Below are positions 2,617 through 11,434 of a stretch of DNA of 64,000 nucleotides, piece by piece. Every line of letters starts with the position of its first letter. Positions within the stretch are counted from its first letter, which is position 1. A model generated the notes under the pieces. That model did no database searches, had not been told where the DNA came from, and saw nothing but the letters and a program-made list of their open reading frames with translations. The DNA comes from Vescimonas coprocola (GTDB lineage Bacteria > Bacillota_I > Bacilli_A > RF39 > UBA660), in assembly GCA_963660615.1 (NCBI GenBank), contig CAVKYE010000005.1, positions 3,349 through 67,348 on the forward strand. The letters are read 5' to 3'. The translations under genes and the position numbers were made by a program.

Positions 2617-3162
2617 GTGAATGAAATTGAAATGAAATTAAAAGTTGATGATTTAAATGCGATAAAAAAAGTATTAGAAAGTAAAGGATGTGTTTTGTCT
2701 GAGACTAAGCATCAAATAGATACAGTATTTTTAGAAAAGAACGCTCAGGATTTTAATATTAAAACAGGAATGATAGTTTTGAGAATTCGTACAATTGGAG
2801 ACAAAAACTTGATTACTCTTAAGCAAAGAAAAGAAAATATTATTGAATCAAAAGAGATTGAGTTCTTTATTAGTGATAGTGCAAAGTGTAAACAACTTTT
2901 TGAAACATTAGGATACAAAGAAATGGTAACTATCGATAAAAAAAGAACAACAACTAAATATAAAAACTTTAATATATGTTTGGACGAGGTTTTGAACCTT
3001 GGTAGCTTTGTAGAAATAGAAATTGTAACGGATGAGGAAAATAAATCAGACTATTATGAAAGTGAAATATTGAAAGTATGTAGTGATTTAGGAATAGATG
3101 TACAGAACAGAATAAACTCTCATTATGATACAATGTTGTATGAATTGAAAAATAATCATTGA
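2617..3162 (+). CDS. CYTH-domain protein (class IV adenylyl cyclase / triphosphatase family)
   Basis: N-terminal EIEMKLKV (ExExK CYTH signature), about 180 aa typical size. GTG start 10 nt after AGGAAGGA; ends in TGA. Confidence 0.7.
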   Translation: MNEIEMKLKVDDLNAIKKVLESKGCVLSETKHQIDTVFLEKNAQDFNIKTGMIVLRIRTIGDKNLITLKQRKENIIESKEIEFFISDSAKCKQLFETLGYKEMVTIDKKRTTTKYKNFNICLDEVLNLGSFVEIEIVTDEENKSDYYESEILKVCSDLGIDVQNRINSHYDTMLYELKNNH

Positions 3163-3189
3163 TTTATTATGGTTATTGTGGTAGTATAT

Positions 3190-3220
3190 AGAACAATAGT
3201 TAGTTTTACTATTGTTCTTT
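3190..3220 (+). terminator. rho-independent terminator
   Basis: Perfect 11-bp stem AGAACAATAGT / ACTATTGTTCT with a 7-nt loop, then TT. A second weaker hairpin follows. Confidence 0.55.
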
Positions 3221-3281
3221 GAAAAGAAACGCTTATTTTTGTTAAATGTGTTTCTTTTTTGCTATTTTTAGGGGGGATTTT

Positions 3282-4790
3282 ATGTCTGAAGGTAAAATTA
3301 TTACTTTGTCAGGGATGTCTGGTGTTGGGAAGTCATTTTTGATAAAGCAACTATTAGAAAGAACACCAAACTTTGAAAAGTTAAAAGCTGTAACTACACG
3401 TGAAAAACGAAAAAATGAAATTGATGGTGTTGATAAGTATTTTGTTTCACTTGAAGATTTTCAAAAAAGTTATGATAACGGAGAATTATGTGTTGTAAAT
3501 GAAGTGTTTGGCAATATGTATGGTTATTATAAAAAAGACTTTGAAAAAACAAAACAAGGAATTAATTTAATTACGGAATTATATTATTCAGAAATTCCTG
3601 AATTTAAACAAAATCATCCAAATACAATAAGCATTTATGTAGTTCCAAGTGATGTTGCAATTACAATTGATAACTTATCAGAAAGAGATACATCGGCTGA
3701 AGAGTTAGAAAAAAGATTGATGGATATTAATCGTGAACTTGATTTTTTTTCTCAATTGGATAAGGAATGTTTTGATTTTATTTTGGTTAATAATTATCGT
3801 GAGGATAGTATTGATTGCTTTAATAAATATTTATCATCACTTATAAACTTTGAATTGAATGAACATCCTGTATCAATACCGATTATTAATCATTTATCAA
3901 GTGATATAAAAAAGATTGTTGATGGTTATGCTTTGGATAAAAACAAAACAGTAGTTTATACATCTTTTGATGGAGACGATATGCATTATTTATCTGATAT
4001 TTGCAAAAATGTTATAGAGCAGGGAAAGATTCCATTAAATCCAGAGGCTGCATTAGGTTATTATGTTTCTACAACTGCACTTGGCGGCACAAAACAGGAA
4101 GTTATGAAAGATTGTTTGACGTTAGAAATGTTGGCAGATGAATTATATGTTTATAGAAATTATGACTATGATATTTCGGAAGGCATTATAGCAGAAATTA
4201 TATTGTGGAATTTAATGAAAAACAATGGATTATCATTTGTTGGCGATGTTAAAAATTTAAAAAACTATGATTTAAAAGGTATTGATGCAAATGGATTAGA
4301 AAAATGGATATCATTGCAAGATGCATTATTAAAAAAAGAATTAAGTTATAATTTGCTTGATGGATATATGAAATCAAAACATAAGTCAAATTATGTAATA
4401 GCAAATTTTAGAAACTTTAAACACATTGATTGGGCAAGGGCTTATAATTATAATAATGGGATTTGTCCTATAAGTCCACAAAATATTTTGCCATATACTT
4501 TATATAATGATGATAATATAGAGTATTTGAAAGCAAGATTAGAATTATTAAGAAGAACTGATGAGGCAACTTTGTTTATAGATAGATTTAATAAAGTGGA
4601 TGAACTTAATGGATTGGATGATTTTTCAAAGGCAGAGTTATATTATTTGAAAATGTATCTTCCTAATAAACCTTTTAAAATAATAGGTTGGGATGAAATT
4701 GGTGTTCCTAAATACGATAAAAATAAAAAATGGTCTTTAACAACGAAAGAAGATTTAGAAACAAGAAGGTTGATAAAGCGTAGAAATTAA
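3282..4790 (+). CDS. guanylate-kinase-like P-loop domain fused to two tandem nucleoside 2-deoxyribosyltransferase-like (DUF4406-like) domains
   Basis: GMSGVGKS P-loop and TTREKRKNEIDGVDKYF (GK signature). The C-terminal ~290 aa are an internal duplication (DGY...G-I-P-x-x-P motifs). The ATG at 3282 follows AGGGGGGA; the longer ORF from 3246 is rejected. Confidence 0.7.
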   Translation: MSEGKIITLSGMSGVGKSFLIKQLLERTPNFEKLKAVTTREKRKNEIDGVDKYFVSLEDFQKSYDNGELCVVNEVFGNMYGYYKKDFEKTKQGINLITELYYSEIPEFKQNHPNTISIYVVPSDVAITIDNLSERDTSAEELEKRLMDINRELDFFSQLDKECFDFILVNNYREDSIDCFNKYLSSLINFELNEHPVSIPIINHLSSDIKKIVDGYALDKNKTVVYTSFDGDDMHYLSDICKNVIEQGKIPLNPEAALGYYVSTTALGGTKQEVMKDCLTLEMLADELYVYRNYDYDISEGIIAEIILWNLMKNNGLSFVGDVKNLKNYDLKGIDANGLEKWISLQDALLKKELSYNLLDGYMKSKHKSNYVIANFRNFKHIDWARAYNYNNGICPISPQNILPYTLYNDDNIEYLKARLELLRRTDEATLFIDRFNKVDELNGLDDFSKAELYYLKMYLPNKPFKIIGWDEIGVPKYDKNKKWSLTTKEDLETRRLIKRRN

Positions 4791-4805
4791 GTTATAATTG
4801 ATGGG

Positions 4806-5585
4806 GTGATAAGATTGATTAGTACACAAGAACAACAAATTGGTGAAATTTTACAAGAATATCTACCAACTATTGAAATAGAAAATAGCATACTTAAAGG
4901 AAATCTTTTGGATGAACCAGTAAAAGAATTTATTGTTGGTAATCCCAATGCTTTTGTAATAGGTCTTATATCAGACCAATCAGTAAAAGCAGAAATTGCG
5001 TGGAGTTTACCATATAGATTATTAGAACGATTAAATACTTTTGATTTTGATTATATTATAAATGAACTTTCTGTTGATTACATAGAGAACGTGATAAAAG
5101 AAAAACCTGCTTTACATAGATATCCTCATAAGATGGCAATATACATATATGAAGCTATGAAAAAAATTATAGAGGAATATAGTGGGGATGCTTTAAATAT
5201 TTGGAATAACCAAAGTGCAGATGTAATCATTGATAGACTTGAAGAATTTAAAGGTATTAGTCATAAAAAGGCATCTTTGGGAACTTTATTATTGATAAGA
5301 GATTTAGGTATGGATATATCAAATAAATCTGCAATAGACATTGCGTATGATGTTCATATTAGAAGAATATTTTTAAGGTTAGGATTAGTTGATAAGGATA
5401 CTATGGAAAATGTTTTACTATCAGCAAGGCGTATTAATCCTGATTTTCCTGGGAACCTTACGACCTCTTTTTGGACTATTGGTAGGAAATATTGTTATGC
5501 AACTGACCCAAATTGTGAAGAATGTCCATTAAAAGAATGTTGTAAAGAACATAAATTAGTTTATAAAAAGAAGGTGGGAGTTTAA
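4806..5585 (+). CDS. HhH-GPD superfamily DNA glycosylase-like protein with EndoIII-type Fe-S cluster loop
   Basis: DVHIRRIFLRLGL (EndoIII-like catalytic Asp context), HhH-like FKGISHKKA, C-terminal C-X6-C-X2-C-X5-C (CYATDPNCEECPLKECC). Confidence 0.65.
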   Translation: MIRLISTQEQQIGEILQEYLPTIEIENSILKGNLLDEPVKEFIVGNPNAFVIGLISDQSVKAEIAWSLPYRLLERLNTFDFDYIINELSVDYIENVIKEKPALHRYPHKMAIYIYEAMKKIIEEYSGDALNIWNNQSADVIIDRLEEFKGISHKKASLGTLLLIRDLGMDISNKSAIDIAYDVHIRRIFLRLGLVDKDTMENVLLSARRINPDFPGNLTTSFWTIGRKYCYATDPNCEECPLKECCKEHKLVYKKKVGV

Positions 5586-6163
5586 TGAAATTTTATTTAG
5601 CATCAACGTCTCAAACAAGACGTGACATTTTAACAAAAGTTGGACTTAATTTTACTGCAATTGCCAGTAATGTTGAGGAAGTGACAAAGGCAGATACAAA
5701 CGAAGAATATTTAATTAACTTATCTAAATTGAAAACTGAAGCAGTGGCAAAAAATCTTTCAAGCGGAATTGTTGTGGGAGCAGATTCTATGATTTGCTTT
5801 AATGGAAAAAGGATTGGCAAACCTAAATCTAAAGATGAGGCAAAAAAGATATTAAGTGAATTATCTGGTAAAACAAATTATGCTTTAACTGGTGTAACGA
5901 TTATAGATTTAAACAAAAATAAAGAAGTTAGTTTCTGCGAAACAACGGAAGTATTATTTGATAATCTTACTGAAGAAGAAATTCAGTGGTATGTAAATCA
6001 TGAGGAACATATTTTAGATAGAGCTGGTTATTCTTTGGCTGGAAAAACTGCTATATTTATTCCACAAATAAAAGGCGATTATTATAATGTTTTGGGAATG
6101 CCTATTTGTAGACTTTATAAAGAAATCAATAAACTAGGATATAAAATATCTGATTTTGAATAG
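5585..6163 (+). CDS. maf: Maf-like nucleoside triphosphate pyrophosphatase
   Basis: MKFYLASTSQTRRDIL N-terminus and ~190 aa length typical of Maf/YhdE. Start overlaps the upstream stop (TAATG). Confidence 0.85.
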   Translation: MKFYLASTSQTRRDILTKVGLNFTAIASNVEEVTKADTNEEYLINLSKLKTEAVAKNLSSGIVVGADSMICFNGKRIGKPKSKDEAKKILSELSGKTNYALTGVTIIDLNKNKEVSFCETTEVLFDNLTEEEIQWYVNHEEHILDRAGYSLAGKTAIFIPQIKGDYYNVLGMPICRLYKEINKLGYKISDFE

Positions 6164-6263
6164 TTAAGTATCATTATTTTATGGTACTTTTTCTTTTATA
6201 AAATAACAAAAAAGTAAGAGGAAAAATTACGATACAAATATTCCTATTGATGTTAGCTTTTAA

Positions 6264-6304
6264 GTGATTTATCGAAAATATTACTTGTCTTTTTTTGATA
6301 AAAT
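6264..6304 (+). promoter_or_regulatory. copy of the shared upstream element (GTGATTTATCGAAAATATTACTTGTC + T7 + GATAAAAT)
   Basis: Near-identical to the elements at 49750, 51269, 52553 and 55262. Lies 30 nt upstream of the LamG gene. Confidence 0.45.
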
Positions 6305-6333
6305 GGGTTTATGATAAAGATGGGTGATAATTT

Positions 6334-7197
6334 ATGCATAGAAGAAAGACAAGAAGGCAAAGAAAAAAGCAGAGAAAAATAATAATTGTATCTTCATTTG
6401 TAATGTTGTTTGCATTAAGTATTGGTTATTCTGCGTTTCAAACAAATATAACCTTAAATGCCAAAGGAAATATAAAGAAATATAAAACAGCCAGCGAACT
6501 AGGATATGTTACAAATGGATTACAAGTAGCATATGACAGTATTGTGGGGTTTAGTGATGATAAAAAATATTGGATAGATATAAGTAATAATAATAGAAAT
6601 GGTAAACTTAAAAACTTTGATAATACAGATATATCAGATGGTTTAAAATTTGATGGTATAGATGATTATGTTTTAATGGATGAAATGAATTATGAAAATG
6701 TAACCATGCAAATAGTTTTAAAATATGATAAGTTTTCAGTAAATGGTTACACTTGTTCATTTAGCAATTTTGAAACTGGTGGATATGGTTTCTCTGTTGA
6801 TAATCAAAATATGCATAACAATTTTGATGTTTTCTTAAAGGATTATGGATATTTACCATCTTCTGAAACAGAAACAGTTTTTTTAGATGAAAATAATAAA
6901 AAAATGGATAATGTTTTAATAGATAAAAAATATTTTTTATCAGGCAGCTATGATAACAATACACTAGTGTTATATGAAAATGATCACAAATATTCAATCG
7001 ATAAAGTTGGAACAATTGGTTATACTCATGACAGCACACATGTTATTTTAGGCGGGAATCCAGCTGGTAGTACATTAACTGGTTCACTCATATTTAGTGG
7101 GAAAATATATTCAGTTAGAATGTATAACAGGGCATTAACCGATAATGAAGTTATTCAAAATTACAACATTGATAAGCAACGATTCAATATAGAATAA
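6334..7197 (+). CDS. membrane-anchored LamG / concanavalin-A-like lectin domain protein
   Basis: Basic N-terminus plus one hydrophobic helix. LKFDGIDDYV and GKIYSVRMYNRALTDNEVIQNY are typical LamG_3 motifs. Confidence 0.65.
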   Translation: MHRRKTRRQRKKQRKIIIVSSFVMLFALSIGYSAFQTNITLNAKGNIKKYKTASELGYVTNGLQVAYDSIVGFSDDKKYWIDISNNNRNGKLKNFDNTDISDGLKFDGIDDYVLMDEMNYENVTMQIVLKYDKFSVNGYTCSFSNFETGGYGFSVDNQNMHNNFDVFLKDYGYLPSSETETVFLDENNKKMDNVLIDKKYFLSGSYDNNTLVLYENDHKYSIDKVGTIGYTHDSTHVILGGNPAGSTLTGSLIFSGKIYSVRMYNRALTDNEVIQNYNIDKQRFNIE

Positions 7198-7794
7198 ATT
7201 TAATTAAAAATAGATAACCATTAATTTTAATTTTTTTATAGAATATAGTATATTTTTATTGATGATAGAAATCACTTTTGATAATGTAAGAGGTATAGAA
7301 TTTGAGTGTCATTAACTGTTAAAATATTTAATTATTCTGGTTTTACCAACAGTTCTATATTAAACAACAATATTAGAGAATAGAGTAATAAATGTTACAA
7401 TAAATTGGTCTGTTATGTATTAGATTTTATTGAATTTGGTATTAAATTAAAAGTTTAGAATGTTATTTGATATGGGTATAATAATCGAAGAATAATAAGA
7501 AAAAAAGAAGAAGGAATTGTTAAATTTATAATAATTATGATTGCTTAAAAGCCTGTTTTTGTACTAACAAATGTGTGTTTAGTATTAAAAACTGGCTTTT
7601 TTGATGGTAATGCTGTTATAACAAAAGTCTTACATTTTATGATATGTATGACATACAAATAGTGATAATTCCCCTTAAAATAAAAGAAAACTCGCCACTG
7701 GTGTGTTGTTGTCATACAGGTTTAACCTGCTTAAAATTTCCACAAGAAAGGAGTATGAAAAACTAATTTTTCTGTATATTGGTACTCTTAATAT

Positions 7795-8019
7795 ATGGGT
7801 ATCTTTTTTAACTATTTTATAAATATGGAGGTGATAATAATAACAAATAATAGTGATACGTTTGTAAAAATAAGACTTGAAAATTCAGTAAGTGATGCAC
7901 TTAAAAAGATAGTTTCTATTAAAGAAACGACTATGCAAAATTATGTATTAGAACTTATAAAAAAGGATATACTTGATAACTTAAGTCTTTTGGTAAAGGG
8001 AAATGTTAATGAAAGATGA
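7795..8019 (+). CDS. small ribbon-helix-helix (CopG-like) protein, start uncertain
   Basis: ..FVKIRLENSVSDALKKIVSIKETTMQNYVLELIKKD resembles an RHH fold. Overlaps the next gene; no clean RBS. Confidence 0.35.
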   Translation: MGIFFNYFINMEVIIITNNSDTFVKIRLENSVSDALKKIVSIKETTMQNYVLELIKKDILDNLSLLVKGNVNER

Positions 8020-8428
8020 TAGAATAACATTTCGATTAACAAAGGAACAAAAAGAGCGACTAGTTTATAATGCCAAAAAGGAAAATATGGGTATTAGTGA
8101 ATATATTATTTCGTGTATTAAAGATAGGAATGAGCTTAATGATTTAAACGATAGCGAGGGTCAGTTTTTGAGACTGTTTGATACTGCATATAATAAAAGT
8201 TCTAGTATTCAAAATAAAAAAACTATGGTCTTATTAAATAAGATTAATTTTAATGTTGAGGTTTTAATAAGGGTTATGAATACGTTTATGAAACAATTAA
8301 AGATACCACAAAATAAGGATGATGTTATTACAACTTTTATCGATTACCCTATTATTACAATATCTGAAGAGCAAGTATTAAAAGAACATAGAAATAAAAA
8401 AGGAACTGATAATAATAGCCACAGCTAA
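8003..8428 (+). CDS. MobC-like mobilisation/RHH protein
   Basis: DDRITFRLTKEQKERLVYNAKKENMGISEYIISCI matches the MobC relaxosome-accessory N-terminal pattern. No relaxase gene follows. Confidence 0.5.
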   Translation: MLMKDDRITFRLTKEQKERLVYNAKKENMGISEYIISCIKDRNELNDLNDSEGQFLRLFDTAYNKSSSIQNKKTMVLLNKINFNVEVLIRVMNTFMKQLKIPQNKDDVITTFIDYPIITISEEQVLKEHRNKKGTDNNSHS

Positions 8429-8730
8429 TATAATTGCGACAGTAGAATATGCGAAAGTAAATAACTTAAAAAAAGGATTATTAAAGTGGGAAAAATACGT
8501 TGCTGATATAAGTAAGTGTGATCCTACAAGTATTGATAATTATGATGTAATAAAAGATAATTATTATTATTCAAGTGATGATTTTATTATTGATGATGGC
8601 GAGAATTTACTTTGGAACAGTTGTGGAGATGTAAATGCAAAAGAAGATATTAAACAAATTGCATCTGTAAATAAATTAACAAAGTGTAGAGTCTTGAGTT
8701 AGTGCAAAAAATAGTGTATATTTATAATGG

Positions 8731-9207
8731 GTGATGAATATGGTGATAACTATTAAAGAGGAAGGCTCAAGATTTGGGGTACGTGTTGGAGCAATTATTT
8801 ATAACGAAGAAAAATCAAAAGTTCTTTTAGAGAATCAAGATAATGGAAGATATATGTTCCCTGGCGGTAGAATTGATGTTCATGAGGATAGTAATACTGC
8901 AATAGTTCGTGAGTTAAAAGAAGAATTAAATTTAGAGACAGAACCGAAGTTAAAGTATATAGTAGAAATGTTTTTAGATTCTTCAAAGACAAAATATCAT
9001 GAAATTGGTTTATATTATTTACTTACTATTTCTGAAGATAAAGTTGCAAATAATTTCCATTCTTTAGATGGTGATAGTATCTTTGAATGGGTTTTGATAT
9101 CAGAACTTAAGAATTATAATATTTTAGCAAAACCACTAAATGATAAGATTGTTTATAATCAAATTGTAGATGATAAGTTAGAACATTTAATTTATAGGGA
9201 ATATTAA
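8731..9207 (+). CDS. NUDIX hydrolase
   Basis: Canonical Nudix box GGRIDVHEDSNTAIVRELKEELNL. Confidence 0.8.
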   Translation: MMNMVITIKEEGSRFGVRVGAIIYNEEKSKVLLENQDNGRYMFPGGRIDVHEDSNTAIVRELKEELNLETEPKLKYIVEMFLDSSKTKYHEIGLYYLLTISEDKVANNFHSLDGDSIFEWVLISELKNYNILAKPLNDKIVYNQIVDDKLEHLIYREY

Positions 9208-9228
9208 TATGAAGGAGATGATTTGTTT

Positions 9229-9651
9229 ATGGATAATGGAAGAATGAATAAACAGGAATTGTTAAATTTAATTTCTAAGCTTGGAATTCAAAAAGAAGAA
9301 TTTTATGTGCTTTCTTCTGGGTCTTTGGTGTTAAGGGATATTATGTTAGATGCTGGTGATTTAGATATTGCGGTTACTAAAACAGGATTACAAAAGTTAA
9401 AGGAACAATATGATTTAGTACAAAAAGAAAATGGGTGGTATATGGTTTCTGATAATATTGAATGTGTTTGTAATGAGAATGATTTTTCTTCACTTAAGCC
9501 TGAGTTTGTTAATGGGTATTATGTTCAAAATATAAATGAATATTTGGATTATTTAGAGAGTAGTGGTAGGGAAAAGGATAAAAAAAGAATTCCTTTAGTT
9601 AAGAAATATATTGAAAAAAAGGATGCTTTATTAAATGGTGCTGATGAATAA
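9229..9651 (+). CDS. hypothetical protein, minimal nucleotidyltransferase-fold candidate
   Basis: SSGS...GDLDIAV resembles the G[SG]-Xn-DxD NTase motif. ATG lies 10 nt after GAAGGAGA. Confidence 0.45.
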   Translation: MDNGRMNKQELLNLISKLGIQKEEFYVLSSGSLVLRDIMLDAGDLDIAVTKTGLQKLKEQYDLVQKENGWYMVSDNIECVCNENDFSSLKPEFVNGYYVQNINEYLDYLESSGREKDKKRIPLVKKYIEKKDALLNGADE

Positions 9652-9723
9652 TATAATTAATCTAAATTTTGTAAAGTCAAAAATTGGCTTTCTTTTTTTA
9701 TGGGTATAATGATTTTTTGATAT

Positions 9724-9749
9724 GAAAAAAAGACTTTTTTGAAAGTCTT
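9724..9749 (-). terminator. rho-independent terminator of the pyrophosphatase gene
   Basis: 8-bp stem AAGACTTT/AAAGTCTT with a T run on the minus strand. Overlaps the stop codon. Confidence 0.5.
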
Positions 9750-11370
9750 ATTTGTTATCTAAGTAGTTCATTAATTTTGGTACTACTTGTTTTTTTCTTG
9801 AAACTAGTCCTTCGAAGAAATGTGCTTCTTCTAGGTCTTCTACTGCGAAAGAGCCTTTAAATATTTCTTGTGCTTCTTCATTATATAGTAAATATGAACC
9901 ATTTTTTAGGATGTCTGTTACGAATAGGGCTACGGCTGTGTAATCTTCGTTTTTAGCTATTTCATTTAGGGTAGATATGAATTCGTCTTTTTTACTCATG
10001 ATTTCTTCAGTTGACATGGTTGATACTTGTCCTACGCCTAGTTTTTGATTATCAATTGTGAAGTTTTTGAAGTCTCCGTGAATTATTTCGGTTATACTTT
10101 TTCCTTCCATTGATGATCCGGCTTTAAACATTTCCATACCATATTTTTCGTAGTCTATTTCGGCTATTTTTGAAAGTTCTATTAGGGCTTTTTTGTCTTT
10201 TTCGGTGGTGGTTGGTGATGTTAGTAATAGGGTGTCTGAGATTATTCCTGATAGCATTAATCCAGCGATGTGTTTTGGTATTTCGATGCCATTTTCTTTA
10301 TACATTAGCCATAGGATTGTTTCGGTACATCCTAGTGGCATGTTTCTAAAGTTTATTGGTGATGATGTTCCGATATTTCCTATTTTATGATGGTCAACTA
10401 TTTCGATTATTTCGGCTTCATCTAGTCCGATTACACTTTGTTCTTTTTCGTTGTGGTCTACTAGGATTACTTTTTTTGGATGTTTGTTATCTGAGATGTT
10501 TGCTCTAAATAATCCTAGGCATTTTCCGTTGTTGTCTAATACTGGATAGTTACTGAATTTCTTTTTGTTTGCCATTTCTAGGACATCATATAGTGAATCG
10601 TTTTCGTTTACTGATATGATTTCTTCTTTTTTTAGTCTATTTTTTATGTAATTACTTAAGACTACTAGGTTGGCGGTTGTGATTCCATCGTGTTTTGTTT
10701 GGATTACGTCGACGTGATTTTTCTTGGCTATTTCTAGATGCTCTTTTTTCATTTCTACGCCATTTGTTAGGATTATTATTGAAGCTGAGTTTTCCACAGC
10801 AAATTCGATTATGCTGTGTCTATCTCCGACTATTAGAACACTATCTTTATCTATTTTTATTTTGTCTTTGAAGGTTGTACTACGGTATGATGGAACGATT
10901 ATGTTTCCTCTGATTTCTTTATCAAATCTTAGTATTTCTTTGGCATCTAGAGCTTCTAGTAAGTTGTCGTATGAGGTGTTTAAAAATCCTAATTTATCGT
11001 TTATTAAGTTACCTAAAGCGTCTTTCATTGATATAGCGCCACAGTAGTTTCCGTTATTATCTATTACAGGTATGGTTCCAATGTGGGTTTCGTTCATGTA
11101 GTTATAGCCTTTGTAGATTGAGTCGTTTTCGTTTAGAAAGCAGTCGGTTACATAGTCTATATCACTTATTTGTAATCTTACGTCGTTTAGGTATTTTGGT
11201 GTTTCTACTTTGAAATAGTCTAGGACGAATTTTGTTTCATTGTTTATGTTTCCAAGTACTCTTGGCTCGGTGTTTTTTCCTAGTTTGTTTTTTAGATATG
11301 ATAGGACAATGGCGGATGTGACACTATCGGTATCTGGTTTTTGGTGTCCAAATATTAATGTTTTTTCCAT
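9748..11370 (-). CDS. ppaC: CBS-domain-containing family II (DHH) inorganic pyrophosphatase
   Basis: LIFGHQKPDTDSV DHH N-terminus, VDHNE, DHHKIG, C-terminal DHHA2-like part. A ~250 aa CBS/DRTGG insert gives 540 aa. Confidence 0.85.
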   Translation of the reverse strand: MEKTLIFGHQKPDTDSVTSAIVLSYLKNKLGKNTEPRVLGNINNETKFVLDYFKVETPKYLNDVRLQISDIDYVTDCFLNENDSIYKGYNYMNETHIGTIPVIDNNGNYCGAISMKDALGNLINDKLGFLNTSYDNLLEALDAKEILRFDKEIRGNIIVPSYRSTTFKDKIKIDKDSVLIVGDRHSIIEFAVENSASIIILTNGVEMKKEHLEIAKKNHVDVIQTKHDGITTANLVVLSNYIKNRLKKEEIISVNENDSLYDVLEMANKKKFSNYPVLDNNGKCLGLFRANISDNKHPKKVILVDHNEKEQSVIGLDEAEIIEIVDHHKIGNIGTSSPINFRNMPLGCTETILWLMYKENGIEIPKHIAGLMLSGIISDTLLLTSPTTTEKDKKALIELSKIAEIDYEKYGMEMFKAGSSMEGKSITEIIHGDFKNFTIDNQKLGVGQVSTMSTEEIMSKKDEFISTLNEIAKNEDYTAVALFVTDILKNGSYLLYNEEAQEIFKGSFAVEDLEEAHFFEGLVSRKKQVVPKLMNYLDNK

Positions 11371-11434
11371 TTGTAATTTCCTCCTTTAAGTTAAACATTT
11401 ATATTATATCATTTTTTTGTTTAAAAAAAAATCC

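Follow-up and report, generated by a model that had tools for sequence, protein, structure and literature searches.

The module in the window and its domains

A run of four genes encoding a CYTH protein, a 502 aa fusion protein, an EndoIII-like HhH-GPD protein and a Maf nucleotide pyrophosphatase was found in a 64,000-nt stretch of DNA from Vescimonas coprocola (contig CAVKYE010000005.1; this whole stretch is here called the window, and coordinates given without the label of another locus refer to it). In the fusion protein a guanylate-kinase-like domain (GK) is followed by two tandem domains, d1 and d2, which make up the C-terminal approximately 300 residues and are together designated DD. 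The four genes make up an operon that is conserved and moves horizontally; its parts belong to known superfamilies, and no published description of their combination was found. An earlier reading made from the DNA alone (the sequence-only reading) had described the four genes as lying on one strand with short gaps, and this arrangement was confirmed, the spacings being 119 nt, 15 nt and finally a 1-nt overlap in which the Maf start lies over the HhH-GPD stop. Its naming of the neighbours as CYTH, Fe-S EndoIII-like and Maf proteins held up in Pfam and PDB searches, and the motifs it had quoted from the 502 aa product are all present.

Table 1 Features of the four-gene module, with their positions in the window
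Feature	Position	Strand	Basis
CYTH / CyaB-like triphosphate-tunnel enzyme, 181 aa, N-terminal EIEMK	2617..3162	+	Pfam CYTH 2.7e-21
AT-rich perfect hairpin, 11 bp, between CYTH and fusion gene	3190..3222	+	strand folding
502 aa fusion, GK-like kinase and tandem nucleoside 2-deoxyribosyltransferase (NDT)/DrHyd-like domains (DD)	3282..4790	+	open reading frame (ORF)
Guanylate-kinase-like domain, residues 5-185	3294..3836	+	Pfam PF00625
Domain d1, residues 217-334, NDT/DNPH1-like	3930..4283	+	AlphaFold2 (AF2) model, Foldseek against PDB
Domain d2, residues 359-496, diverged duplicate of d1	4356..4769	+	hhalign, AF2
EndoIII-like HhH-GPD protein with [4Fe-4S] loop, 259 aa	4806..5585	+	TIGR03252 2.6e-21, Pfam HhH-GPD 1.8e-4
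Maf nucleotide pyrophosphatase, 192 aa	5585..6163	+	Pfam Maf 6.1e-48

The N-terminal domain of the fusion protein covers the full GK fold (PF00625, 76.1 bits against a cut-off of 25.2, 3.7e-21) and matches guanylate kinases in the PDB down to 8e-21. The P-loop and guanylate-kinase signature that the sequence-only reading had placed in the first approximately 190 aa correspond to GMSGVGKS at residues 11-18 (G11-S18) and TTREKR at residues 38-43. The TIGR03263 score of 101.8 is below the Gmk equivalog cut-off of 160.45, as it is below every Gmk equivalog cut-off, and the domain is predicted to be a member of the GK fold, yet is not filed as Gmk. Across 56 family sequences the GxSGxGKS P-loop, both arginines of TTRxxR (R40 and R43) and two lid arginines are invariant, and the P-loop, the lid arginines and the arginines that bind the phosphate of the nucleoside monophosphate (NMP) are common to Gmk and other GK-fold enzymes such as PhnN and T4-type dNMP kinases. 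The residues that specify guanine differ. In mouse GK the guanine contacts are S37, E72, T83 and D103 (Ser, Glu, Thr/Ser and Asp at these positions in the yeast and mouse enzymes); in the window protein A36, V71, Y82 and Y101 stand there, and column statistics over the 56 sequences gave A/S, V/T/I, Y and Y/F family-wide. A further Tyr, conserved in canonical GKs, is replaced by Lys in 55 of the 56 sequences (K52 in the window protein). As the residues for guanine recognition are replaced while those for phosphoryl transfer are kept, the domain is predicted to be capable of phosphoryl transfer and to have a base pocket that is hydrophobic and aromatic, acting on a substrate other than GMP. A PhnN-like ribose-1,5-bisphosphate kinase role was considered and rejected, the match being weak (5.6e-7) and the TTRxxR and E..G.D motifs being GK-like and not PhnN-like.

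The C-terminal part of the fusion had been read from the sequence as two mutually similar units of approximately 130 aa. Pairwise BLAST did not support this (d1 against d2 was not significant, E 0.37), but comparison of family profiles did, d1 and d2 aligning with an hhalign probability of 82% (E 1e-5, 96 columns), and an AF2 model of residues 200-502 with a predicted local distance difference test (pLDDT) score of 91.9 contained two alpha/beta units of the same topology and element order. Because the profiles align and the model repeats the order of elements, the predicted internal duplication is regarded as real. In the window protein YTSFDGD is found at residues 226-232, SEGIIAE at 299-305, ANFRNFKHIDWAR at 374-386 and LDDFSKAELYY at 445-455. 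Invariant features of d1 are the YTSFDGD loop after strand 1, NPE..LGYY, K..VM.DC and the helix start E300-G301-x3-E305, and those conserved in d2 are ANFxNxKHIDWAR, CPxSPQN, LDxxSxxE(452)L and a C-terminal W..VPKY..WALT tail.

A deoxyribosyltransferase-like fold, also suggested by the sequence-only reading, was borne out by structure and not by sequence. The C-terminal halves of the window protein matched no Pfam family even at E≤10, NDT families included. Among its relatives, DUF7768 (PF24963) was matched by 12 of 47 close and 4 of 71 distant sequences (best E 1.3e-16), and in two proteins with a stand-alone DD (P0059 and P0060; P0xxx labels denote individual homologues) either half matched at 28-29.6 bits, against a gathering score of 26. 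The NDT family PF05014 was matched weakly by one of the 47 close relatives (0.0048), and the match to the NDT family PHROG_355 was likewise weak (0.0055). Profiles of d1 and d2 gave chance matches only against all PDB sequences, and no signal when aligned with the DNPH1 sequence by hhalign.

When the two-domain model was compared with the PDB by Foldseek only noise was obtained, and matches to the NDT family surfaced after d1 was split out. Against the viral library BFVD, the two-domain model matched many single-domain phage proteins named nucleoside 2-deoxyribosyltransferase, with a probability of approximately 1.0 and a template modelling (TM) score of 0.56-0.62 on the target. The separate d1 model (AF2 pLDDT 84.7) had as its best PDB matches human DNPH1/Rcl (8rpt, the best of all, probability 1.0), the CMP N-glycosidases MilB and BcmB (4jem, 4jel, 4jen), bacterial NDT/PTD enzymes and a putative Parabacteroides NDT (7o62, 1s2l and 1s2d being among the NDT matches), and TIR domains (ThsB, TLR1, MyD88) were interleaved among these. 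Foldseek probabilities for d1 ranged from 0.6 to 1.0 (0.99-1.0 for DNPH1, MilB and NDT) and TM scores from 0.43 to 0.62 (0.5-0.62 for the best matches), with modest E-values of approximately 6e-3 or weaker. Since the E-values are modest and the profile-sequence comparisons were negative, DD was filed in the NDT/DrHyd-TIR fold class and in no sequence family; the models support membership of the NDT/DrHyd superfamily at superfamily or fold level only. Its tandem architecture, the VPKY..WALT tail and the partner genes described below are specific to the DD family and set it apart from NDT and DUF7768 proteins.

The sequence-only reading had asked whether the catalytic acidic residue of deoxyribosyltransferases is present. 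Within the EGxxxE motif the Gly and the second Glu are invariant in the 47 close and 71 distant relatives; E300, G301 and E305 start the helix after the fourth strand of d1, and in d2 the invariant Glu E452 stands at the position aligned by hhalign. The helix that follows strand 4 opens with a Glu in DNPH1 ('SLGVGYELG') as in d1 ('SEGIIAEII'), and the DNPH1 nucleophile is marked by a crystallographic E-to-Q mutant of the protein named '5-hydroxymethyl-dUMP N-hydrolase' in the PDB. E305 would occupy the place of the DNPH1/NDT nucleophile, an equivalence judged by the order of secondary-structure elements.

The HhH-GPD protein has its HhH motif at G150-A156 with K154/K155 (GISHKKA, corresponding to GVGRKTA of E. 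coli Nth), an Asp at the catalytic position (D182) and four cysteines (C230, C237, C240 and C246). In the PDB match to EndoIII (6.8e-6, 1p59/1orn) D182 pairs with the catalytic Asp, 'AYDVHIRR' aligning with 'AVDTHVER', and all four residues of the Cys-X6-Cys-X2-Cys-X5-Cys cluster align with the EndoIII [4Fe-4S] loop. These three elements are common to the window protein, EndoIII (Nth) and MutY. The protein differs from both in belonging to a rare subfamily paired with or fused to DD and in an N-terminal half that resembles TIGR03252, which is its best model although the score of 76.1 bits lies below the cut-off of 136.5. The Nth equivalog TIGR01083 gave 23.5 bits against a cut-off of 211.7. 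With Pfam HhH-GPD the window protein scored 22.2 bits, below the gathering score of 26.2, and DD-fused relatives scored above it, at 36.5 bits. The subfamily comprises 223 clusters (90% identity, 5.8 billion non-redundant proteins) and is roughly co-extensive with DD; judged from these comparisons it is a distinct, rare subfamily of predicted Fe-S HhH-GPD glycosylases. Identity with the aGPT-Pplase of thymidine hypermodification was rejected, as no such Pfam match was obtained and the EndoIII catalytic residues are intact.

The CYTH protein scored 76.6 bits with PF01928 and 79.9 bits with TIGR00318, above the cut-off of 57.95, and its EIEMK (an ExExK motif) is at residues 3-7; profile and motif together predict a CYTH, class IV adenylate cyclase-like protein. 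The Maf protein matched over its full length (PF02545, 163.4 bits; TIGR00172, 156.1 bits, above the cut-off of 117.15). The ATG at 3282 is preceded at a distance of 5 nt by a strong Shine-Dalgarno sequence, AGGGGGGA, which confirms the 502 aa reading of the fusion gene. Between the CYTH and fusion genes an 83-nt stretch that includes the 11-bp perfect stem folds with a minimum free energy of -13.9 kcal/mol (z = -1.7). The stem is followed by no more than 2-3 U, and a consensus terminator scan did not pick up the hairpin; by its sequence it is a possible weak terminator or attenuator, and with such a hairpin in the 119-nt gap the CYTH gene may be partly insulated in transcription from the genes downstream.

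Linkage, fusions and genomic context

A scan of 185,579 species genomes gave 32 species-level loci (labelled L0xx), the ORFs of which were searched with the window proteins. All are in metagenome-assembled genomes (MAGs) of uncultured organisms with a patchy distribution: gut Bacilli, Erysipelotrichaceae, Clostridia, Lachnospiraceae, a Chloroflexia and an Opitutaceae. GK, DD and HhH occur together in almost all of the 32, in collinear order and in three states of fusion, namely GK+DD with separate HhH, three separate genes, and GK with a DD+HhH fusion; in the Opitutaceae locus L042 the order is rearranged to DD-HhH-GK. The same three architectures were seen among 132 homologues (90% clustering, 5.8 billion non-redundant proteins), where DD is fused to GK in proteins of approximately 500 aa, stands alone at approximately 311 aa, or is N-terminal to HhH-GPD in proteins of approximately 579 aa. 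The co-localisation of GK, DD and HhH is far beyond chance.

Other enzymes accompany this core less regularly. Maf adjoins the module in approximately 22 of the 32 loci, in Bacilli as a same-strand gene downstream and in Clostridia as a divergent gene upstream. CYTH is upstream in five loci (directly so in L012, L013, L015 and L033) and is fused to DD in P0123, while a NUDIX hydrolase adjoins the module at L006 and L040 and forms a fusion with DD in P0252. A Ppx/GppA protein adjoins DD in all four distant loci described below, and in P0219 is fused to a single d1 with the C-terminal tail. The sequence-only reading had held that its proposal would fall if the four genes were never co-localised in other genomes, and the adjacency and fusions of GK, DD and HhH, the two orientations of Maf and the occurrences of CYTH show that they clearly are co-localised. 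A small-molecule S-adenosylmethionine (SAM) methyltransferase with weak TehB and TPMT-type matches follows DD+HhH fusions in L005, L007, L035 and L036, and is fused to DD in P0158. In L006 (6227-9964) and L040 a radical SAM (SPASM/MoaA-like) domain replaces d1 and is fused to d2, with the HhH protein next and with an amino-acid:carrier-protein ligase, an acyl carrier protein-like carrier protein and the NUDIX hydrolase upstream; in L006 a DpnII-type restriction-modification (RM) system and an AIPR protein are found downstream. One apparent Maf-d2 chimera, P0119, was treated as a probable assembly or frameshift artefact.

The genes that flank the module differ between genomes and include uvrB, PBP2B-mraY-ftsW, tyrS, secA, IS110 and serine recombinases. 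Eroded copies were also found: HhH alone after ftsW in L047 (5001-5774) and L048, relatives of Candidatus Faecisoma, and in L049 (the same as L038; 4408-5762) a DD cut down to d2 beside Maf and HhH, with no GK. Because the flanks differ and eroded copies exist, the behaviour of the module is that of an accessory element. In the Bacilli MAG loci L013 (~5400-11372), L014, L022 and L023, short ORFs (93-103 aa) that cluster with UvrB are present just upstream of the module, and may be the trace of insertion next to uvrB; full-length uvrB is downstream of Maf in L013, L024 and L025.

The DD family as a whole comprises 172 clusters (exhaustive HMMER search of 1.84 billion representative proteins), nearly all with two domains. 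In a distant branch DD (approximately 330 aa) is part of a three-gene cassette with an AAA+ ATPase (approximately 660-690 aa) and Ppx/GppA (approximately 300 aa), found in all four long contigs, which are unrelated to one another (L043, 3959-8019; L044, 3922-7937; L045, 3875-7781; L046, 4038-7979). The cassette adjoins integrases, PIN, AbiEii, Fic, ArdC and RadC genes and is a candidate for an undescribed defence system. In PADLOC its ATPase showed generic AAA+ similarity to IetA and TRIP13.

PADLOC v2 gave no match for CYTH, HhH, Maf, stand-alone DD, DD+HhH or Ppx, and weak P-loop noise only for the fusion protein. When 150 distinct neighbours of the module were searched, Cas9, MADS, RM and PDC candidates were obtained at some loci and the rest were ordinary genes; several module loci stand beside recombinases or RM, AIPR, Cas9, MADS or multiubiquitin/E1 genes. 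In L033 (994-3957) a putative Cas9-like gene is three genes upstream of the module, and its 989-aa ORF is the likely source of the PADLOC Cas9 match. In L042 (4257-6834) multiubiquitin and ThiF/E1-like adenylyltransferase genes are directly upstream of DD-HhH-GK, the N-terminus of the ThiF/E1-like protein being JAB-like by eye only, and an AAA_28 kinase-like ATPase gene is downstream. A review of the TIR-DrHyd-SLOG clade, whose members commonly serve as NADases or generate signals in conflict systems, records only sporadic SLOG-guanylate kinase fusions in phages (PMC9503650). In the literature and the defence databases no description was found of the DD family, its tandem architecture, the function of DUF7768 or the gene combination, and a metagenomic preprint on defence selection does not mention the module.

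Several further genes lie near the module in the window. Just upstream of CYTH, at 2295-2528, is a fragment from the C-terminus of an M23 peptidase (77 aa, Pfam 1.5e-13), which may be the remnant of a mobile element; a similar fragment of 66 aa is upstream of the module in L005. Downstream, at 6334-7197, is a gene for a 287-aa protein with an N-terminal basic and hydrophobic segment and a Laminin_G_3/concanavalin-like domain (Pfam 2.9e-5, below the gathering score). Approximately 2 kb beyond Maf, a gene for a NikA-like mobilisation (relaxosome accessory) protein at 8003-8428 (Pfam 2.7e-7) and a small overlapping ORF at 7795-8019 hint at the remnant of a mobilisable element. A NUDIX hydrolase gene (8731-9207, Pfam 8.2e-12), for one more nucleotide pyrophosphatase, lies within 3 kb of the module and is followed by an unassigned 142-aa ORF at 9223-9651. 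GC skew is strongly positive in every 2-kb bin of the window (0.18-0.56, at 25-37% GC), and the entire window seems to belong to a single replichore, its coding strands being G-rich.

Possible functions of the module

The suggestion of the sequence-only reading, that the module sanitises a non-canonical nucleotide or is a conflict system, was kept as the best reading of the module. In the form tentatively favoured here, and held with rather less than even confidence, the module would be a clean-up or innate-defence unit for one non-canonical base, acting on both the nucleotide pool and DNA. It draws on the recurring partners of DD, which are enzymes that strip 5'-polyphosphates, an enzyme of NMP-kinase fold with an altered base pocket and an EndoIII-type glycosylase, and on the closest structural relatives of DD, which cleave modified pyrimidine NMPs. 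Maf, NUDIX, CYTH and Ppx/GppA substitute for one another and are sometimes fused to DD, which argues that dephosphorylation of a nucleotide is part of the pathway.

Domain identities, folds, conserved residues, gene linkage and fusions, rarity and patchy distribution were observed, and from these we infer every catalytic step of the scheme, as well as which way the flux runs and what kind of base is handled. A polyphosphate remover (Maf and possibly CYTH, or NUDIX or Ppx/GppA in the variants) would convert an aberrant (d)NTP to the nucleoside diphosphate (NDP) or the NMP. The GK-like domain would handle the aberrant NMP/NDP, probably equilibrating the two and passing NMP directly to the next domain, to which it is fused. 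There the tandem NDT/DNPH1-like domains would form an intramolecular pseudo-dimer in which E305 of d1 cleaves the N-glycosidic bond, d2 and the conserved C-terminal tail complete the active site, and free base and (deoxy)ribose 5-phosphate are released. The Fe-S HhH-GPD glycosylase would excise the same base from DNA, and in some variants the small-molecule SAM methyltransferase may inactivate the released base. A funnel of this kind, from aberrant NTP through NDP/NMP to free base together with excision from DNA, appears to be the most economical reading of the parts, and it could serve house-cleaning, resistance to an antimetabolite (a base-analogue toxin), or innate defence against phage-modified nucleotides or DNA.

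There are precedents for this logic. DNPH1 acts with SMUG1 against 5-hydroxymethyl-deoxyuridine, and MutT with MutM and MutY against 8-oxoguanine; a DNA glycosylase, Brig1, reportedly acts as a stand-alone anti-phage defence. DNPH1, the 5-hydroxymethyl-dUMP hydrolase, offers a close parallel: the base that its NMP N-glycosidase activity clears from the pool is also cut out of DNA, by a glycosylase. DNPH1 is a homodimer with a phosphate-binding SIRGG loop, whereas DD is a tandem predicted to act as a pseudo-dimer, shows no detectable sequence similarity to DNPH1 and is fused to a kinase or a glycosylase. The MutT-MutM-MutY 'GO' system and Maf/RdgB house-cleaning likewise set an NTP pyrophosphatase and a DNA glycosylase against one aberrant base; unlike the GO system or Brig1, the window module links its parts in one operon or polypeptide and adds an NMP-level N-glycosidase-like enzyme and a kinase.

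Several observations weigh against this clean-up reading. None of the module components has a known activity or substrate, and sequence-level homology of the window protein to NDT or DNPH1 was undetectable. A forward NMP kinase would oppose sanitation, so that the scheme needs the kinase to run in reverse, to channel substrate or to serve some other purpose. In DNPH1 the loop after strand 1 binds phosphate, whereas that of d1 (FDGD) is acidic, and an NMP substrate for d1 is for this reason not assured. Radical SAM, amino-acid:carrier-protein ligase, methyltransferase and glycosyltransferase neighbours in some variants look biosynthetic, and many loci lie among housekeeping genes (uvrB, mraY/ftsW, tyrS, secA). 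The distant AAA+-DD-Ppx/GppA branch is without GK and HhH and therefore may do something else. Salvage of queuosine by a Qng1-like enzyme was also considered and set aside, no tgt or queuosine-transport genes having turned up among the neighbours examined.

A broader proposal, which we regard as somewhat unlikely, is that the GK-DD-HhH module and the AAA+-DD-Ppx/GppA cassette belong to one unrecognised family of immune or resistance systems. Such systems would recognise one modified nucleobase, either a hypermodified pyrimidine or purine of a phage or a base-analogue toxin, and eliminate it at the NTP/NDP, NMP and DNA levels in one coupled machine, with the rewired GK pocket as the specificity filter.

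The same enzymes could instead run towards synthesis, in a biosynthetic pathway or a pre-replicative modification of DNA, a possibility to which a low probability was given. In this case the pyrophosphatase would take NTP to NMP, DD would exchange or release the base for tailoring by a methyltransferase, radical SAM or aminoacyl-carrier enzyme, GK would re-phosphorylate the modified NMP towards NTP for incorporation, and HhH-GPD would remove the unmodified base, insert the modified one or confer self-resistance. An NTP pyrophosphatase combined with an NMP-modifying enzyme and an NMP kinase follows the logic of pre-replicative DNA modification in phages, examples of which are T4 gp56/gp42/gp1 and MazZ/PurZ, and a forward kinase with a re-tuned base pocket fits naturally. 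NDTs are transferases, and MilB, BcmB (the latter from a Clostridium) and BlsM, N-glycosidases of CMP and hydroxymethyl-CMP, release bases in nucleoside-antibiotic pathways beside methyltransferases and kinases that act on modified pyrimidine NMPs. The methyltransferase that is conserved after DD+HhH and fused in P0158, and the ligase, carrier protein and d2-fused radical SAM domain of L006 and L040, are in keeping with such a pathway. Yet the pathways of the single-domain MilB, BcmB and BlsM enzymes include a hydroxymethylase and no DNA glycosylase, and the core of the window-type module is without a conserved base-synthesising or hydroxymethylase-type enzyme; the window locus and most others lack any tailoring enzyme, having just GK, DD, HhH and Maf. 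Eroded copies with HhH alone or a truncated DD would be hard to tolerate if genomic DNA relied on the pathway, and the EndoIII-type Asp and the Fe-S loop, both intact, speak for excision and not insertion. The alternative was retained at this level because of the kinase role, the acidic d1 loop and the biosynthetic-looking accessories.

Equally improbable in our estimate is anti-phage immunity by signalling or depletion, in which a TIR/DrHyd-like DD would deplete an essential nucleotide, for example NAD+, ATP or a dNMP, or make a nucleotide-derived messenger; the kinase, CYTH, NUDIX, Maf and Ppx/GppA would build, trim or quench that molecule, and the part of effector or regulator would fall to HhH-GPD or, in the distant branch, to the AAA+ protein. 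DD has the Rossmannoid fold class of TIR-DrHyd-SLOG effectors (Thoeris, retron and others) in common, ThsB, TLR1 and MyD88 being among the structural matches of d1, and NDT-like effectors are said to accompany retrons in defence. The score of the CYTH protein is above the cut-off of the class IV adenylate-cyclase model. The clade is a common source of NADases and signal generators in conflict systems (PMC9503650), the distant cassette with its AAA+ ATPase lies on mobile islands beside integrases, PIN, AbiEii, Fic and ArdC in each of its four contigs, and module loci adjoin a DpnII RM system with AIPR, Cas9, MADS and PDC matches and multiubiquitin with E1. Against this, no core protein of the GK-DD-HhH branch matched a known defence-system model in PADLOC, and no sensor or regulator is recognisable in it; toxicity would be expected of a NADase or ATPase effector without regulation, yet many copies stand among housekeeping genes. 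Fusion of a DNA glycosylase to a supposed signal generator is without precedent, and the enrichment in defence genes is modest, few of the 150 distinct neighbours being clearly of defence type. It was the TIR-like fold and the cassette on mobile islands that kept this alternative in consideration.

An ordinary origin, by which a housekeeping guanylate kinase with an unrelated C-terminal extension lies by chance beside housekeeping nth and maf, would agree with the Pfam and NCBIfam calls of guanylate kinase for the N-terminus, the NCBI annotation 'endonuclease III' of the HhH protein in some MAGs and the housekeeping flanks of some loci, but it is so improbable as to be effectively excluded by the conserved linkage and the rewired pocket, for the GK domain falls below every Gmk cut-off with its guanine-binding residues replaced family-wide, the adjacency is kept across phyla, in three fusion states and in the changed gene order of L042, the HhH subfamily roughly equals DD in rarity (223 versus 132 clusters) when a true nth would be near-universal, and L047 has a separate Guanylate_kin gene of ordinary length 4 kb away.

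If the clean-up reading is correct, the module would be a compact, transferable system that couples cleaning of the nucleotide pool to DNA base excision for a single aberrant base, and would represent in the gut microbiome a new defence against phages with modified DNA or a resistance to base-analogue antimetabolites. It would also provide new enzyme specificities relevant to nucleotide biotechnology and the mapping of DNA modifications, namely those of an NMP kinase whose pocket is not made for guanine, of a DNPH1-like N-glycosidase in tandem form and of a new subfamily of Fe-S glycosylases, and would give a function to DUF7768-type domains. The sister AAA+-DD-Ppx/GppA cassette on mobile islands suggests that a wider, unexplored family of conflict systems may exist.

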